From: Mollicutes bacterium
GTDB taxonomy: Bacteria > Bacillota_I > Bacilli_A > Mycoplasmatales > MT37
Direction of reading: 5' to 3'
DNA: 64,000 nt
NCBI GenBank assembly: GCA_029976705.1
Contig: JARVCM010000013.1
Coordinates: 5,612-69,611, forward strand
The first letter of the stretch is position 1. The number at the start of each line of letters is the position of its first letter. Position numbers and translations under genes: made by a program. A model generated the notes under the pieces. The model searched no databases, had not been told where the DNA came from, and saw only the letters and a list, made by a program, of their open reading frames with translations. Positions 3,096 through 50,719 of this stretch are shown piece by piece.

Positions 3096-4065
3096 TTAAA
3101 AAAGAATTATAAAAGCTATTAATTCGGAAAATTTACTCGCATGATTAAAAATTAATTGCGGGTTTTATCTTTTTTACCAAATAGAGGATTACCTAGTGTG
3201 ATAATTTCTTTTTTAGAACTTATATTAAGCGAAAAATTCTTTTTTTTGAATCAGATAAAGTTCTGGTTTTAAATTAATTTCAATTTTTTTGTTTAAGGAA
3301 AAAGTAAAAAAATGTACCATTACCAGTCAAAAATTCTAAAAATAAAATTTGTTTTGATAAATAGTTTGTAGTTTTTTTAAAGAAATTAAAATATTTTTTT
3401 GCTGTTTAAACTTTAGTATAAAAATTGTTCAAATGAAATAGTATTTGTTTTTTAAAATTTCTTTAATTTCATATTTGAAATAAAAATTAATATGTAAAAT
3501 TATAATAAAATTAGTTAAATTAATAAGTAAAAATCAAAAAACTTCAAAATAAATTATCACCAAATAAAAATCTAAATATTATTTTCACATAAGTTAAATG
3601 TAAATTTTTTTTAAAACAAATTAAAACTCTACTGGCATCTTACTATATCCACAAAAATCAAGTATTTTCTTCGTAAAAATTGTTTAACCACTTTGTTTAG
3701 AAAAGAAAAAATAGATTCAACTTAGCAACAATGCCAAGAAAAACAAAAAAGAAAATGAACAATAAAAAATAAAGACCGAAATTAGAAATACAGATTCAAA
3801 AACGATTAATTGTCATGGTAAAAAATAAAAAATTATCAACGATTAATATTGCTTAGTTAAAAACATCACTGCGCTTACAAATTAATTTAAAAAAATAAAA
3901 ATTTTTTTTAAAAGTAACTAATCTATTTCTAAATATGAACTTAGTTGATTAAATAACCAACATTGAATCTAACAAATTATTGCACAATTACAATTTTTAA
4001 AAAATATTTTCTTAACCAAATAAAGAAAAATGTTTATTTTTTCTTTCTAATTTCTAGTAAAAAAA

Positions 4066-29279: not shown

Positions 29280-31100
29280 TTATTTTAATTCTAAAATTTG
29301 TAATATTTTTTCTAATAAATTAGTAAAAACACCATAACTCTTCAAAGAAGAAACTAAAAAAATAGAAATATTTTGTTTTTTAATGAATGGGAAAAACGCT
29401 TTAATACTTTGTTCTATTTTGTTCTTATTTTCTTTAATTAGATCTGATTTATTACCTACAATAATAAATTTTTTATCAAATTGTAAAATTAAATCAATCA
29501 TTTTTTTATCTTGAACTGTTAATTCTTGTGAAGCATCACAAACAAACAAAACTAAATCAATTCATTTAAGATATTTTAAAATTTGAATTTTCGCTTTTTT
29601 TTCAATCGTTTGTGCTTTTGTGCGTTTTTTTCTAATACCTGCTGAATCAATAAAACTTAAATGATGATTTTGATATAGAATTTTTTCTTCCACTACATTT
29701 GTTGTCGTATGACGTTGGTTAGAGACAATAACTCTTTTTTTTCGACAAAGAGCATTAAATAAAGATGATTTTCCAACATTAGTTTTACCGAATAAAAGAA
29801 TTTGATTTGTCTTTTCACTTTCTTCTTCTTTTTCTTGTCCTGATATATTTTTTTCTATTCAATTTAATAGTTCGCTAAAATTTAATTTAGTTTTAGTTGA
29901 AAGGGGGATTTGGGTTTTTATTCCTAATTGATTGAAATTTTTAATTTGATCTTTATTAGTAAACTTTTCCGCTTTATTAATAATCAAAACAGTTTTATTT
30001 TTATGATATTTAATCAGTTTGTTAATTCTTAAATCAATCAAATTTAATGGTTGATTAAAATCAACAACTCAAAACAATCAATCACTTTGATTAATAACTG
30101 CCTCGGTTCTTTCGGCGATTTCTTTTTCTAAAAAATTACTTGTTTCTGTTAATCCACCTGTATCAACAAGAATAAAATTACGATTTTTAACAGTAATTCT
30201 TTTAGAATAAAAATCACGAGTGGTATTAGCAATTTGGGAAATTAAAACAGTATTTTTGCCAGCCAATCTATTAAAAAGTGTTGATTTACCAACATTACTT
30301 TGACCAATAATAGTTACTTTAGGAAGTGTAAAATTTTGTTGTTCAATAAGTTGCAACATTAATTTTAACGTTTGAGTAAAATCTAAAAAAGTATTATTAA
30401 TTTCAAAAGCATCAAGCGCTATTTTTAAAGAACCTATTTTTCTGTTGCGATCATTTTCATCTCTTTTCTTCATTTCTGTTTTAATTTTTTGATAAAAAGG
30501 ATCGTTTTTAAATGGATAATTGGGTTTACTAACATTTAATTTATTTATTAAAGTTTTAAAAGAGTTCTCTTTTTTTTTAAAATTTAATCATCGACGTTTT
30601 ACTCTTGCATCAAAAGCGGCGTTAATAAAAAATTTTACTTCAGCATCAGGAGCAATAACTGTGGTTGCGTCTCTTCCAACAAGAACAAAACATTTTTCTT
30701 TAATTCAATTTTGACAAAGAGAAGTAACTTGATTCCTAATTCATTTGTTATTGACAAAATAAGGCACTAAACTACTAATTGTTAAATTAAAAATTTGATC
30801 ATTTGGAATCAAATTGCCTTCAAAATAAAATTCATCTTTTTTAAATTGCAAATTTTGTTTAAAAAAAAGAAAATCTTTTTTTAATTGAAGTGTTGTATAA
30901 TTGTTAAAATCAAGATTTTTGCTTTGATAATATCAAATTAATAAGCGATAAATCTTACCACTATCTAAAAAAGCAAAATTTAATTCACGTGCTATTGATA
31001 ATCCTAAAGTAGTTTTACCACTTGCTGCTGGACCGTCAATAGCAATAATTATCGGCTTTATTTTTAATTTGTTAAAATGATTATTAGGCATGTAAACAAA
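29280..31100 (-). CDS. fused cytidylate kinase / GTPase Der (Der part lacks the KH domain)
   Basis: One continuous frame, checked codon by codon. Cmk part: [13 protein letters not shown] .. [10 protein letters not shown] .. [23 protein letters not shown]. It runs directly into Der G-domain 1 ([20 protein letters not shown]) and G-domain 2 ([24 protein letters not shown]). No stop of any kind at the junction. The start is uncertain (TTG 31100); the nearby ATG 31092 is out of frame. Confidence 0.75.
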
Positions 31101-31171
31101 ACACAAAAAAAGAATAAATTAATTCAAAAAATTCATTTGGTTCGACGTTTTTTTGATTTAATTAGAAAATC

Positions 31172-41583: not shown

Positions 41584-41684
41584 ACAAATCAAAAAAATAA
41601 TAATAAGTTATTGATAAAAAGTAAAACAATAAAATAAAATGTATTATAGTAAAATCTATAAACAAGAAACAAAGCAAAAAATTG

Positions 41685-42695
41685 ATGAAAATTAATTGAA
41701 CAAATAAAAATAAGCCGTTGCTTTTAGGTCTTTCTACAGCTACTCAATGAATAGAAAAGATAGCTCAAGAATTAAGTTTATCATTCCATTATTTGCCTAA
41801 GAAAATTTTTGCTGACCAAGAAATTTTAGTAGAAATCCCCGTTTCTGTTCGTAATCAAAATGTTTTTCTTTGTCAATCTATTTCTCGCCCTGCTAACGAT
41901 ACACTGATGGAACTTTTAATCGCTATTGATGCTTTAAATCGTGCTTCTGCAAAATCTATTACTTTAATTATTCCTTATTTTGGCTATGCTCGACAAGATC
42001 GTAAAGCTCAAGGTAGAGAACCAATTACAGCAAAATTAATTGCCAATATGTTAACTTTTTTGAAAGTGGCAAGAATTGTAACTTTTGATTTACACTCATC
42101 ACAAATTCAAGGTTTTTTCGATATTCCTGTTGATCATTTAAGTGTTTTACCGCAATTAATTTTACGTTTATTAACAAAAAATCAAATTAAAAACTATGTT
42201 TTAGTCGCTCCTGATAGCGGAGGTTATCAAAGAGTCAAAAAAATTAGCGAATATTTACAAAGTGATGTTGCTGTTATGAATAAAAAACGCCCAAATAAAA
42301 ATCAAACACAAGTTAATTTTATTCTTGGCAATGTTTTTAATAAAAATTTAATTTTTGTTGATGACATGATTGATACTAGTGATACTTTAATCAATTCGTT
42401 GGAATATTTACAAAAAAAGGGAGCAAAAAAAATGTATGTTGTTGCTACACATGCTGTTTTTAGTAACGGCGCTTTAGATAAATTAAACACTTTATATCAA
42501 AAAGGTTGATTAAAAAAAGTAATAGTTAGTAATTCAATTTTAATAAAAGAACAAAAAAAATATTCTTTTTTAGAAATTTATTCTCTTTCACATGATATTA
42601 GTAATATCGTTAAAGCAATTATTGAAGGTGGATCTATTTCAGAATACGGCAAAAAACAATTTAAAATGCTTGAAAATTATAAAACAAATGAATAA
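41685..42695 (+). CDS. prs: ribose-phosphate pyrophosphokinase
   Basis: IPYFGYARQDRK, DLHSSQIQGFF and VDDMIDTSDTL motifs. Confidence 0.92.
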
Positions 42696-44550
42696 ATTAA
42701 TACTGGTTGGTTTAGGAAATGATGATTCAAGTTATCAAAAAACAAGACATAATGTTGGCGTTATGTTTTTAGATTTTTTAGCAATAAAAAATGATTCTAA
42801 ATGAATAAACAGCGCTAATTGTTGATGAACAACAATTATTATTGATGACAAAAAATTAACTTTAATTAAACTTCATGCATGAATGAACGTTTCAGGGGTA
42901 GTGTTAAAGAAAGTCTTAACTAAATTAAACTTAGAATTATCAGAAACTTTTATTTGCGTTGATAACATTGATTTATCATTTGGAAAAATCAAACTAGGTA
43001 GTTATTTACCAAATAATGGTCACAAGGGTATTAAAAATATTCGTGATATTTTTCGTACCAAAAACATTGCTACCTTACATATTGGTGTAGATAAAAATAT
43101 TCCTGTAGATAGTTGAGTGCTAAGTGAATTTTCCATAACAGAACAAGAAAAACTACAAGAACAGACTTTTCCTCAATTAACAAAAAGACTGTTAAAAAGT
43201 TATCAAAACAGTACCGACAAGGAAATTTTAATAAATAACTTTCATAAACAAGGAAAAACACAAAAATCAAAACATCGCCATCTAGCAATTGTAGGCGGAC
43301 AATGAGGTGATGAAGGGAAAGGTAAAATTGTTGATTATTTTGCCACACAAAATTATCCAATTGTTGCCCGTTTTTCTGGCGGTGATAATGCCGGCCATAC
43401 AATTAAAATTCAAAAAAAAACATATCAATTTTCTATTTTGCCAGTATCTATAATTCAACCCGAGGTTGTTTCTATTATTGGGCGTGGATGTTTAATCAAT
43501 CTGAAAAAATTAGTAGAAGAATTAGAAAATTTACAAAAAAATCAAAATAAAATTAATTTACAAATTTCACCATTTGCTCATGTCGTTTTGCCTTATCATT
43601 TATTAATGGACGAATTGCAAGAACAAAAACGCCAAAAAAATAAAATTGGCACAACTAAACGTGGAATTGGTCCTTGTTTGGAAGATAAAGCGGGAAGATT
43701 TGGCATCCAAATACTGGATTTGTTTGATGTGAATAATTTCACAAAAAAATTACAAGAAATTTTAGAAACCAAAAATGCTATTTTTACCAAAATTTACCAA
43801 CACACAGCATTAAAATGAAAAGATATCTTAAACGAACAACTAATGTTATTTACAAAAATTAAAAAGTATGTCACAAATGTTTGAGAATTTTGTCAAACCA
43901 ATCAAAAACAAGCTATTTTATTCGAAGGCGCTCAGGGAACATTATTAGATATTAATTTTGGAACATATCCTTTTGTCACTAGTTCATCAACAATTACTTG
44001 ACAAATCGGTAATAGTTTTGGTAATCTTTGTCATCAAACCAAATTTATGGGAGTTTTTAAAGCTTACTCTACTCGTGTAGGAGCAGGGCCAATATGAACT
44101 GAATTTTTAAATGAAAAAGAAATTGGTGAACAAATTGCCATAAAAGGTAATGAATTTGGCGTTGTAACCAAACGTAAACGACGTATTGGATGATTTGATG
44201 CTATATTTGCTCGTTATGCTTGTCAAGTAAATGGTTTTCATCAAATCGCTTTAACTATGTTAGATGTTTTGGGAGGTTTTGATAAAATTAAAATCTGTGT
44301 TGCGTATAAAAACAATGATCAAACAATGATCAGTTTTCCCTTTCAACAAAATTATGAAAAGTTAGATTGTGAATATATTGTTTTAAATGGATGAAAAGAA
44401 GATATTTCTCATATGACAAATTATCAAGAATTACCAATAAACGCCAAAAAATATGTTGAAAAAATTGAAGAACTTCTTAAAACTTCTATCACTTTAATTT
44501 CAGTTGGACCAGAAAGGAATCAGGTAATTTGAAAAAATCAAACAAAATAA
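42688..44550 (+). CDS. fused peptidyl-tRNA hydrolase / adenylosuccinate synthetase (620 aa)
   Basis: Pth part: [33 protein letters not shown] and DSWVLSEF. A roughly 35-aa linker follows, then PurA: [37 protein letters not shown] and KRKRRIGW. I read every codon across 43111-43440 and found no TAA/TAG and no plausible internal start. Confidence 0.8.
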
Positions 44551-44572: not shown

Positions 44573-45874
44573 ATGATAAGAAGATACCAAAACAATAAGA
44601 TTAATAAAATTTGAAATCAAACAAACAAATTAAATACTTGGCTAAAAATAGAAATTTTAGTTTTACAATATTGACATCAATCTGCTTTATTTAATCATCA
44701 AACAATGTCAGCAATAAACAAATTAACTTGTAATTCAAAACGTTTAGAAGAAATCGAAAAAAACACAAATCATGAAATTTTTGCATTTGTGAATATGTTA
44801 ACAGAACAACTACCGTCAGAGCAAGGAAAATGAATTCATTATGGCCTTACTTCTAATGATATTTTAGATACAACGCAAAACTATTTATTAAAACAAAGTT
44901 GTGAAATAATTGTGCAAAAAATTGAAAATATCTTAGTAATTTTAAAAAAAACAGCTTACCAAGAAAAAAACACCATTAGCATTGGTAGAACTCACGGAAT
45001 GTTTGCTGAACCAATCACAATCGGATTTAAATTTGCCTTATGATTTTACGAATTACGCAATCATTTACGTAGAATTAATGAAGCAAAAAAAGAAATTAAT
45101 TATGTTAAAATTTTAGGACCAACAGGAATTAGTGCTCATTCTTCTTTAGAGTTAAATAAATTTGTTGGTAAAAAACTTGATATGAAGGCAACAAAAATTG
45201 CCAATCAAGTCATTTCTCGCGATCATTTAATTGCTGTTTTTAACACTTTGATAAATCTTGTTACTTCTATAGAAAAATCAGCAATTGAAATTCGTAATTT
45301 AAGTCGTAGTGAACTGAATGAAATCAGTGAAGGTTTCGGCAAAAAGCAAAAAGGTTCATCAGCAATGCCACATAAAAAAAATCCAATTTGAAGTGAAAAT
45401 ATTTGTGGTTTAGTTCGTTATTTACGCAATATGACGCAAAGTTTTTATCATACCAATTTACTTTGACATGAACGTGATTTATCTAATTCTTCCATTGAAA
45501 GAATAGCGATTCCTGATACTTTACATTTAACAATGACAATCTTGACCAGATGAGAAAAAGTTTTAACTAATTTACAAATTAATCATTCACAAATTAAAAT
45601 CAATTTAAAAAAAGAACCTGTTGCAGTTTTTAGTCATCGTATATTACTAACTTTAATTGCCAAGAGTAAATTAAATCGTCAAGAAGCTTATCAATTAGTT
45701 CAAAAAGCAAGTTTTGAAACCTTAAAAAACCAAACCAATTTTCAAGAAAATTTAAAAACATTAGGAATTTTGAATTATTTAACACCAAAACAGTTGCAAG
45801 ATTGTTTTAATTACGATAGTTTCATGAAAAATATTGACAACATTTTTCATGAAGTTTTCAACGAAAATGAATAA
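44573..45874 (+). CDS. purB: adenylosuccinate lyase
   Basis: HYGLTSNDILDT, GRTHGMFAEP and the signature GSSAMPHKKNP. Confidence 0.92.
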
Positions 45875-46439
45875 AGTAGCTATATTAAAAGAAATTATTT
45901 TTTCCAATAAATTAATTTTGGAAAAAATTAGTGAATATGCTAAAAAACTTAATAAAATTTATGCAAAAGAAAAATTAGTAATCATTAGTGTTTTAAATGG
46001 ATCGGTTTTCTTTACAACGCGATTGGCGTCGCTTTTAAAAATAGATTTAGAAATTGATTTTATTGCTGTTTCTTCATATAACGACAATAAAAAAAAAAGT
46101 AAAACCCATTTTTATAAAGAATTAAAAATTAACATCGCCAACAAAAACGTTTTGATCATAGAAGATATTATTGATTCAGGAAAAACAATTGGTTTGGTTT
46201 ATGAATTTTTAAAAAAATTAAATCCAAAACATATTCGTCTTTGTTCATTAATTATGAGTGGAAAAAATCGTAAAACAAATAATAATAATTTTACTTTTTC
46301 AATTGATCGCTTATTAACTTTAAATAATGACTCTTGAATTGTGGGGTTTGGAATTGATTTTCAAGAAAAATTTCGTAATTTAACAGATATTTATTCAATT
46401 CAATGATCAAAATCCAAAGAACTTATCAAAATCAAGTAG
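45867..46439 (+). CDS. hpt: hypoxanthine(-guanine) phosphoribosyltransferase, paralogue 1
   Basis: DFIAVSSY, the PRPP loop VLIIEDIIDSGKT, and IVGFGIDFQEKFRNL. Its start overlaps the purB stop (atgaataa). Confidence 0.82.
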
Positions 46440-48836: not shown

Positions 48837-49409
48837 ATGAAAAACACAAAATCTTCAAAAAATTCCACACACAATTTAATAGAAAGCGTTCTTTTTGATC
48901 ACAAAGTTATTTTACAAGGCATTAAAATTTTAGCAGAAAAGTTAAATAAAAAATATAAAAACAAAAAGCATCCTATCATTTTTTTAGGAGTTTTAAAGGG
49001 TTGTTTGCCTTTTATGATGGAATTAATTAAACATTTAAAATTTGATCTTAAAATTGATTTTATGGTAGTGAGCTCTTATTTTGGTGGCGTGGAAAAACGC
49101 TTTCAAAAACCTAAGTTAATCTTAGATGTGGGCAATGATTTAAGTGATCATCATATTGTAATAATTGAAGACATTATTGAAACAGGAATTACAATTCAAA
49201 CAATCAAAAAACATCTCAAATTAAAAGAACCGAAATCAATTAAAGTGGCAAGTTTAATTTATAAAAAAGAAATGAATATTGATAATTTAGAAATTGTTCC
49301 TGATTGATATGTTTTTGAAGCTCCGATGAGATTTTTAGTTGGTTTTGGATTAGATTTTGAAGAAAAATTACGAAATCTTGATTACATTGGAATTTTAAAG
49401 GGAAATTAA
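48837..49409 (+). CDS. hpt: hypoxanthine(-guanine) phosphoribosyltransferase, paralogue 2
   Basis: DFMVVSSY, IVIIEDIIETGIT and LVGFGLDFEEKLRNL. 190 aa, the same length as paralogue 1 but strongly diverged from it. Confidence 0.85.
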
Positions 49410-49429
49410 TACTTAAAAATTTACGTTTA

Positions 49430-50719
49430 ATGGCAATTGGCAAAAATAAAACATTTCAAAAAAACGATCATCGCGAGATCAATAAAAAATTAAAATTTTT
49501 TCATTTTTCTGAAAATGTTGGTTCTAGTTTACCAATTTGATTGCCTAATGGTGAATTAGTAAAACATTTAATCAAACAATATTTAAAAAAATTGGAAACA
49601 GAATACAATTTTAATTTTGTTACTACTCCTGTTTTAGGAAAAATTGAAATGTATAAAACAAGCGGTCATTTAGAGCATTATCAGGAATATATGTTTCCGG
49701 CAATAAAAGTAAATGAGCAAAAATTAATGTTAAGGCCGATGGCTTGTCCTCATCATTGTAAGGTTTTTTGTCATCAAAATTATTCTTATCAAGATTTACC
49801 TGTTCGTATGTCTGAAAACGTTTTGTTGTTTCGTTATGAAAAAAGTGGTGCTATTCATGGTTTAGAAAGAGTTCGCCAAATGGAATTAAAAGACGCTCAT
49901 ATTTTTCTCCCTAAAAATAAGTCAATTATCAAAAAAGAAATTACTAATTGTTTTTTTATGATTAAAACAGCATTAAGAAAATTAGGTTTAAAAATAGATA
50001 AAATTTATCTTTCTTTGCATGATTCAGAAAATATGAAAAAATATTATCATGATATTAATCTCTGAAAAAAAACTGAAAATATTCTGGAAGAAGTTTTAAC
50101 TGAATTAAAAGTAACGTTTGAAAAAGTAAAGGGCGAAGCGGCTTTTTATGGTCCTAAAATTGATTTCCAAGTCAATACTGTTTTACAACATGATGTAACT
50201 ATTTCCACAATACAACTAGATTTTTTATTAGGGGAAAAATTTAAATTAAAATATCGCACCAAAAAACAAAACAAGGGGGAAATATTTGCAACCCCTATTG
50301 TTGTTCACCTCGGAACTATTGGAACTTATGAACGGTTATTATCATTATTATTAGAACAAAAAAACGGTTGATTACCTTTTTGGTTGTCTCCTGCACAAAT
50401 TATGATTTTTTCTATGAATAACGATGAAACAACTAAAAAATACGCACAGAAAGTTTTTGAATTTTTGAAAAGTCATGATTTACGTGTAGAAATGATGGAT
50501 GTGAATAAAAAAATCAGCGAAAATATTAAACTAGCTTGAGAAAGAAAAGTTCCTGTACACATTTTTCTCGGCAAACAAGAAACGGAAAGCAAAACAATTA
50601 CTTATATTCATCACAACCATCCTCAAACAAAACATAATAAAGATATTTTTCAATTAATTGATCAATGTCAAAAATGAATGAACAATATTGAATCAGAAAA
50701 AAATAAAAAACAAAAATAA
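49430..50719 (+). CDS. thrS: threonyl-tRNA synthetase, catalytic plus anticodon-binding domains only (429 aa)
   Basis: The protein starts 12 residues before the DHRE motif that opens the class II core. Contains TSGHLEHYQEYMF, RPMACPHH, LERVRQMELKDAHIF and GEAAFYGPKIDF. Confidence 0.87.

Follow-up and report, generated by a model that had tools for sequence, protein, structure and literature searches.

The 64-kb window analysed here (the whole stretch of 64,000 nucleotides from the mollicute contig JARVCM010000013.1) carries a gene, pth::purA, in which peptidyl-tRNA hydrolase (Pth), the enzyme for recycling of stalled peptidyl-tRNAs, and adenylosuccinate synthetase (PurA), an enzyme of AMP synthesis, share a single open reading frame (ORF). 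The fusion is genuine and not an assembly artefact; this domain architecture is ancient, is restricted to one clade and had not been discussed before. Its product is probably one polypeptide with both functions and a mass of about 72 kDa, formed by a Pth domain of about 187 amino acids, a connector of about 10 residues and a PurA domain of about 423 amino acids, which would have originated through deletion-driven genome reduction.

The genome containing the window matches Candidatus (Ca.) Thalassoplasma callogorgiae, a member of the family Ca. Oceanoplasmataceae. This family groups mollicutes of deep-sea and marine invertebrates that use genetic code 4 and possess genomes of 0.4-0.65 Mb. The genome of Ca. 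Thalassoplasma callogorgiae consists of 445,436 bp in 21 contigs with 24.9% GC (Vohsen et al. 2024, PMC11535214).

Reading frame and domains of pth::purA

When translation table 4 is used (TGA read as tryptophan), the forward-strand frame is uninterrupted from position 42592 to 44550. The likely start of the gene is the ATG at 42688, which creates an 8-nt overlap with the end of prs (ATGAATAA), whose stop codon is located at 42693-42695. The 13 Trp codons of pth::purA are all TGA, with no TGG, and the G+C content of the window is about 25%. With table 11, the same region only yields short ORFs, each ending at a TGA. The two TGA codons of the junction region, at 43114 and 43303, are both placed at conserved Trp sites (Table 1), indicating that code 4 is the correct reading. 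An earlier note on this DNA had claimed that no stop in any genetic code was present between 43111 and 43440, which is wrong because of these two in-frame TGA codons; between them, a codon scan detected no in-frame stop of any type. The claim that PurA lacks an ATG, GTG or TTG of its own was nearly right. The GTG at 43117 is in frame and is the sole canonical start between the Trp143 and Trp206 codons, although its position falls within WVLSEF, a motif of Pth. Minor table-4 starts are present in the junction region at 43225 (ATT), 43228 (TTA), 43231 (ATA) and 43288 (ATT).

The presence of a complete Pth and a complete PurA in one frame of 620 codons, as first noticed, is borne out by the table-4 ORF and by the Pfam and NCBIfam profiles. 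The Pfam domain Pept_tRNA_hydro (PF01195) was found with an E-value of 2.6e-33 and 115.8 bits (cut-off 27), and Adenylsucc_synt (PF00709) was matched over its full length on the same ORF (profile 1-416/416, E 1.1e-150, 502 bits). The protein also passes the NCBIfam equivalog thresholds for pth (TIGR00447, 112.8 bits, cut-off 100) and for purA (TIGR00184, 455 bits, cut-off 396; NF002223, 497 bits, cut-off 402). The PurZ variant was ruled out (NF038379, 121 bits, cut-off 300), and the NCBIfam scan of this ORF matched no curated bifunctional family. Among PDB entries, the fused protein matches PurA structures with E-values of about 1e-103 and Pth structures with values of about 1e-18.

The Pth domain contains the motifs GLGN (N11), RHN (H21), MNVSG (N67), VDNIDL (D92), GHKG (K113) and WVLSEF, followed by two C-terminal helices. 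Residues N11, H21, N67 and D92 do not vary among the 11 orthologues of alignment A1, and N11, H21 and D92 align with PDB Pth chains; in the E. coli enzyme, Asn10, His20 and Asp93 are the catalytic residues, and Asn68 and Asn114 clamp the substrate. The PurA domain opens with the strand beta-1 (HLAIVGG), to which the P-loop follows. Its motifs GDEGKGK, NAGHT, GTT..GIGP, FEGAQG and R..R..GWFD are all invariant in the same alignment and align with 4m0g and 1ade.

The region that separates both domains is shorter than previously thought. In the AlphaFold model, the mean predicted local distance difference test (pLDDT) value is 72.9 for the fused protein and values range from 83 to 94 across the Pth core; residues 150-174 and 178-187 form helices of Pth, residues 188-197 a coil, and residues 198-203 the first strand of PurA. 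The alignment of the window protein with PDB chain 4yly, an S. aureus-type Pth, extends into the region of the C-terminal helices of Pth. Thus, the Lys/Gln-rich linker of about 35 residues described in the earlier note corresponds mostly to these helices, and the true connector is composed of about 10 residues, in which the codon scan found neither stops nor canonical starts. The distance between WVL and GDEGKGK is 61-68 residues in all the fused orthologues, and the Pth tail and PurA head of unfused relatives (family f10, see below) together give 54.

Table 1. Position of the features described in the text (window coordinates unless a contig is named)
Feature	Position	Strand	Basis or remarks
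prs (ribose-phosphate pyrophosphokinase)	41682..42695	+	Code-4 ORF; Pfam Pribosyltran_N/Pribosyl_synth on the identical gene of contig L013
Fused pth::purA ORF	42688..44550	+	620 codons + TAA
Pth domain, residues 1-187	42688..43248	+	PF01195, TIGR00447, PDB alignments, invariant columns of A1, AlphaFold2 model
TGA = Trp143, Pth motif WVLSEF	43114..43116	+	W143 invariant in the 11-orthologue alignment A1
Inter-domain connector, about 10 residues	43249..43278	+	Low-confidence coil in the AlphaFold2 model; end of the 4yly alignment
PurA domain, residues 198-620, + TAA	43279..44550	+	PF00709, TIGR00184, NF002223, PDB 4m0g/1ade and others
TGA = Trp206, PurA motif QWGDEGKGK	43303..43305	+	Aligns with W of PDB PurA sequences
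purB (adenylosuccinate lyase)	44573..45874	+	22 nt downstream of pth::purA; Pfam Lyase_1/ADSL_C on identical gene
hpt (purine phosphoribosyltransferase)	45834..46439	+	Pfam Pribosyltran; completes the salvage block
Cmk + Der (EngA), 608 aa	29280..31106	-	Pfam Cytidylate_kin 21-190 + two MMR_HSR1
RsmD + Gmk, 389 aa	35234..36403	+	Pfam Cons_hypoth95 1-185 + Guanylate_kin 200-383
Unfused pth/purA pair of L097	L097:1732-3650		Logan contig from SRR8377268

Distribution and history of the fusion

Contigs of three other metagenome assemblies encode exactly the same protein of 620 aa, one of these contigs coming from BioSample SAMN12856805, within the range of metagenomes of the genome paper (PMC11535214), and the 241 nt around the junction do not differ among five assemblies (several Callogorgia delta samples). 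The fused ORF has about 12 orthologues across Ca. Oceanoplasmataceae. A search of 5.8 billion proteins retrieved 11 protein clusters carrying both Pfam domains, with sizes of 609-652 aa and located on contigs of 0.3-0.68 Mb. Their identity to the window protein is 42-58% over the full length, and 36-51% over the query region when the cluster representative is excluded. Each of the five family genomes searched (G000-G004, belonging to three genera) possesses a single fused ORF, which encodes 609-647 aa in G001-G004, and no second copy of pth or purA was found in these five genomes. The comparison with sister genomes that had been proposed as a check therefore supports the fusion, since the fused frame is kept in all the family genomes and in the 11 divergent clusters. 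A continuous ORF in such divergent orthologues indicates that an indel artefact is not able to account for it. One 314-aa cluster member (P0123) was considered as a naturally split gene and rejected, its purA part containing a 10-N scaffold gap.

The architecture is restricted to this clade. When 1.84 billion representative proteins were searched exhaustively with HMMER, using the whole Pth plus the 70 N-terminal residues of PurA as query, five proteins matched both parts, all of them from this clade, and no Pth-PurA fusion was detected outside it. The co-occurrence of both domains, another of the checks that had been suggested, was thus found solely here. A word-indexed search using the Pth part alone only returned the query, Pth being too diverged for 5-mer seeding, and a search of genome contigs for related loci gave no match for the single protein and, by alignment, nothing but PurA genes of different phyla, unrelated to this one. 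In the literature search no paper linking Pth with PurA as a fusion was found, and the main text of the genome paper (PMC11535214) mentions neither the fusion nor Pth or PurA. The earlier view that this architecture had not been described is upheld by these searches.

In the supplementary annotation of the genome paper, the Ca. Oceanoplasma callogorgiae orthologue is a gene of 1863 nt annotated as 'adenylosuccinate synthase', for which both Pfam domains are recorded (PMC11535214, Supplementary Data 1). Two metatranscriptomes contain this orthologue, at estimated counts of 33 and 37 (PMC11535214, Supplementary Data 1), indicating that it is transcribed. When the gene is labelled in this way, the essential pth could be scored as missing in pathway reconstructions; recognition of the fusion corrects the minimal-gene-set inventories of these symbionts.

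The order of the genes is older than the fusion. In a family of the same order with larger genomes (f10, 1.2-2 Mb; contigs L006 and L009), prs is followed by a pth of 185 aa ending in TAA, a 51-nt spacer that holds a ribosome-binding site (AAAGGAAG), a purA of 428-429 aa starting with ATG, a DJ-1-like gene and purB. The pth gene adjoins purA in other families too (G036). Since both genes are separate but adjacent in relatives with larger genomes, the fusion can be understood as the loss of the stop codon, the spacer and the start codon between two old neighbours.

The fusion is not obligatory, since a lineage nested within the fused clade has separate genes. The exhaustive HMMER search also detected a Pth-only protein (P0136, 41% identity) encoded on contig L097 (20.7% G+C, code 4), a single contig from one run. 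In L097, rpsF and prs precede a pth of 201 aa that terminates with TAA; a 23-nt spacer composed only of A and T separates it from purA (429 aa), after which come purB and hpt, and purA starts with ATG ATG in a frame different from that of pth.

All the trees constructed nest L097 within the fused clade, where Ca. Oceanoplasma and G002 together form its sister group. Its support is 94/90 in the PurA tree, and in the Pth tree it belongs to a subclade supported by 98/96, the approximately unbiased (AU) test of a single clade of fused sequences giving p = 0.014. The same placement was obtained with the flanking genes prs and purB, which lie outside the fusion (97/98, AU p = 0.03), and with four genes and 1355 columns (all branches starred, AU p = 0.0005). 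The group submitted to the AU tests was named after the first tree had been seen, although it is a natural prior hypothesis. Composition bias was rejected as the cause of this nesting, since Dayhoff-6 recoding rendered the same topology (97.8/97).

These trees suggest two or more transitions in fusion state, either by one fusion and a later fission or by three separate fusions. On the tree, a basal fusion followed by fission requires two events and independent fusions require three. A single origin agrees with a connector that hardly changes in length from one of the three subclades to another. We lean slightly towards fusion and subsequent fission as the history of L097; repeated fusion would be a possible but more tentative explanation, and it is improbable that the nesting reflects residual tree error. 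The L097 Pth measures 193 aa from GLGN to its end, and PurA begins at 193-195 in the fused sisters. This tail was considered as a scar of the fusion, but it argues only weakly for fission because 8.7% of the free-standing Pth proteins have tails of the same length.

Origin and product of the fused gene

Two additional fusions between neighbouring genes are present in the window (Table 1). The ORF joining Cmk and Der was matched in the five family genomes: it is open in G001, G003 and G004 (573-620 aa), and in G002 there is one in-frame TAA. RsmD and guanylate kinase (Gmk) are joined across a TGA codon read as Trp, and each of the five genomes has one open frame of 387-397 aa for them; this protein matched no curated bifunctional family. 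The proposal that Pth-PurA is one of three neighbour fusions of the window agrees with the Pfam domains and family-wide conservation of the other two, and this conservation also supports the suggested tendency of the lineage to fuse genes.

The fusion would have taken place in the ancestor of Ca. Oceanoplasmataceae, when an operon containing prs, pth, purA and purB lost the stop codon of pth, the start codon of purA and the short spacer between them. The most plausible driver would be the bias towards deletions in extreme genome reduction, and a neutral cause is favoured because no need for cooperation between the two activities is evident. The split state of L097 and the occurrence of three fusions of former neighbours within 64 kb also point to deletion-driven merging rather than to selection for coupling. 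Translation would start at the ATG at 42688, coupled to that of prs, and proceed through both domains. Since the catalytic residues are kept and each gene is present as a sole copy, both activities would be expected from the fused protein, and PurA presumably still dimerises, the dimer carrying two Pth domains. We infer that the single polypeptide is the main product, that both of its domains are active and that its origin is neutral. Such a protein would be evidence that Pth can carry a large partner at its C-terminus and PurA a 20-kDa one at its N-terminus.

Some observations weigh against this interpretation, and they are presented here together with the alternatives that they favour. The first is that one ORF could give rise to two proteins, either because translation initiates internally, with ATA at 43231 or ATT at 43288 as non-canonical starts, or by proteolysis in the basic connector. 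The sequence AAGGAA (43219-43224) is located directly 5' of the ATT/TTA/ATA codons at 43225-43231, 6 nt before the ATA at 43231, and these codons and the ATT at 43288 might act as weak table-4 starts. The connector is predicted to be disordered and is rich in Lys and Arg. Besides, some orthologues have a canonical start just before beta-1 of PurA: an in-frame GTG in L002, ATG and TTG in L005, and a Met codon in P0008 (RKMVVVGG). In contrast, no canonical start is present near the PurA N-terminus in the window (CTA, ATT) or in L003 (TTA), and no start codon at the junction is conserved among the orthologues compared. The neighbouring genes lack Shine-Dalgarno sequences, and AAGGAA is probably just a pair of Lys and Glu codons. 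Internal promoter sites are not in excess either (29 found, 34.8 expected from shuffled sequences), and no terminator was detected between the Pth and PurA domains, counts being at or below the shuffled expectation. Two separate products are therefore regarded as unlikely.

In the second alternative, the fusion would be adaptive. The tether between Pth and PurA could have been selected because it ensures 1:1 expression, because the PurA dimer stabilises a marginal Pth, or because it ties translation rescue to the adenylate supply. The fusion has been retained across hosts and deep divergence (42-58% identity, with a reported average nucleotide identity of about 63-65%; PMC11535214) with a tight connector distance (61-68), and the three fusions of the window all pair an enzyme of nucleotide metabolism with a translation or ribosome factor. 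However, all of them join prior neighbours, which argues for a mechanism rather than a function, and the nested L097 lineage functions with separate genes; the pairing is taken as inherited operon structure. We know of no biochemical link between the reactions catalysed by Pth and PurA. Selection for the tether seems quite improbable; under it, Pth-PurA, Cmk-Der and RsmD-Gmk would lock nucleotide pools and the translation apparatus into a fixed ratio in cells nearly devoid of regulators, and L097 would be a rare natural reversal that could be used as a control.

A third alternative is that one half is a relic: either Pth is no more than an inactive extension at the N-terminus of PurA, or PurA is the inactive part. 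Residue 113 (43024-43026) is Lys in the window protein (GHKG), Gln in P0004 (GHQG) and Asn in the other nine orthologues (GHNG). Nearly all Pth proteins have Asn at this position, which corresponds to N114 of E. coli, the Asn that binds the CCA end of the substrate according to Pth mutagenesis. The presence of Lys113 instead of this Asn may alter Pth activity. However, N11, H21, D92 and the full set of PurA active-site residues are invariant family-wide, both halves score above the curated equivalog cut-offs, and neither pth nor purA has another copy in the five genomes searched; in general, Pth is an enzyme that bacteria cannot do without. It is thus very improbable that either half is a relic.

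Finally, a small indel that masks a true pth stop and purA start, as might be suspected in an AT-rich region with homopolymer runs, has practically no chance of explaining the fusion, since five assemblies share exactly the same junction DNA, the ORF recurs in the divergent orthologues, which were obtained from other hosts and with other assemblers and are in part encoded by closed genomes of about 0.4-0.6 Mb, and both domains are recorded within one 1863-nt gene in the published annotation (PMC11535214).

Genomic context and comparison with known systems

The genes prs, pth::purA, purB and hpt are most simply read as a purine-salvage operon, in which the purB product catalyses the next step in the conversion of IMP to AMP (inosine and adenosine monophosphate, respectively). 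This block is rearranged in contig L002 (genome G001, of the same genus as the window), where the region 3' of the fused gene (3408-3966) contains an unrelated ORF of at least 297 aa and not purB. In the window, two diverged hpt-like phosphoribosyltransferase genes (45834-46439 and 48837-49409, forward strand) flank rsmI and metG in an operon-like block. A threonyl-tRNA synthetase ORF (49304-50719, forward strand) only matches the Pfam class-II core and anticodon-binding domains, with no TGS or editing domain.

The fusion of neighbouring genes in reduced genomes is a kind of event already known, the Pth-PurA pair being new. The family offers a natural series, from separate genes with a 51-nt spacer to separate genes with a 23-nt spacer and to fused genes, with an unfused lineage nested among the fused ones. 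For this reason it could be useful for studying how genome reduction creates, and possibly reverses, multi-domain proteins.

The closest systems are the prs-pth-purA-purB operons of f10 (L006 and L009) and L097, which share with the window the gene order, the two enzymes and their catalytic motifs. However, Pth (PF01195/TIGR00447) and PurA (PF00709/TIGR00184) are free-standing proteins in these relatives, whereas in the window they constitute one chain of 620 aa with a connector of about 10 residues.

The bifunctional cytidylate kinase/GTPase Der (NCBIfam NF007071, PRK09518) is another case in which unrelated housekeeping neighbours share one ORF, and the Cmk-Der ORF at 29280-31106 has the same architecture. 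Pth-PurA differs from it in the enzymes that are joined. The score of the window Cmk-Der against NF007071 (264 bits) is far below the cut-off (953), suggesting that this known architecture probably had an independent origin here.

Other proteins containing Pth in a fusion were found in unrelated organisms within the library of 1.84 billion proteins. P0260 (590 aa) is composed of a class-I aminoacyl-tRNA synthetase of the Trp/Tyr type followed by Pth, and in P0137 (566 aa) a Mur-ligase C domain precedes two stretches of Pth. These proteins show that Pth can be fused to another domain. In both of them, unlike in the window protein, Pth is C-terminal and PurA is absent.

Gene fusions and overlaps have also been reported in extremely reduced symbiont genomes, such as that of Carsonella ruddii. 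The likeness to Carsonella lies in the loss of intergenic DNA in a very small genome, which merges adjacent cistrons. However, the phylum and the genes involved are different, and the Pth-PurA fusion is old, family-wide and apparently reversible.

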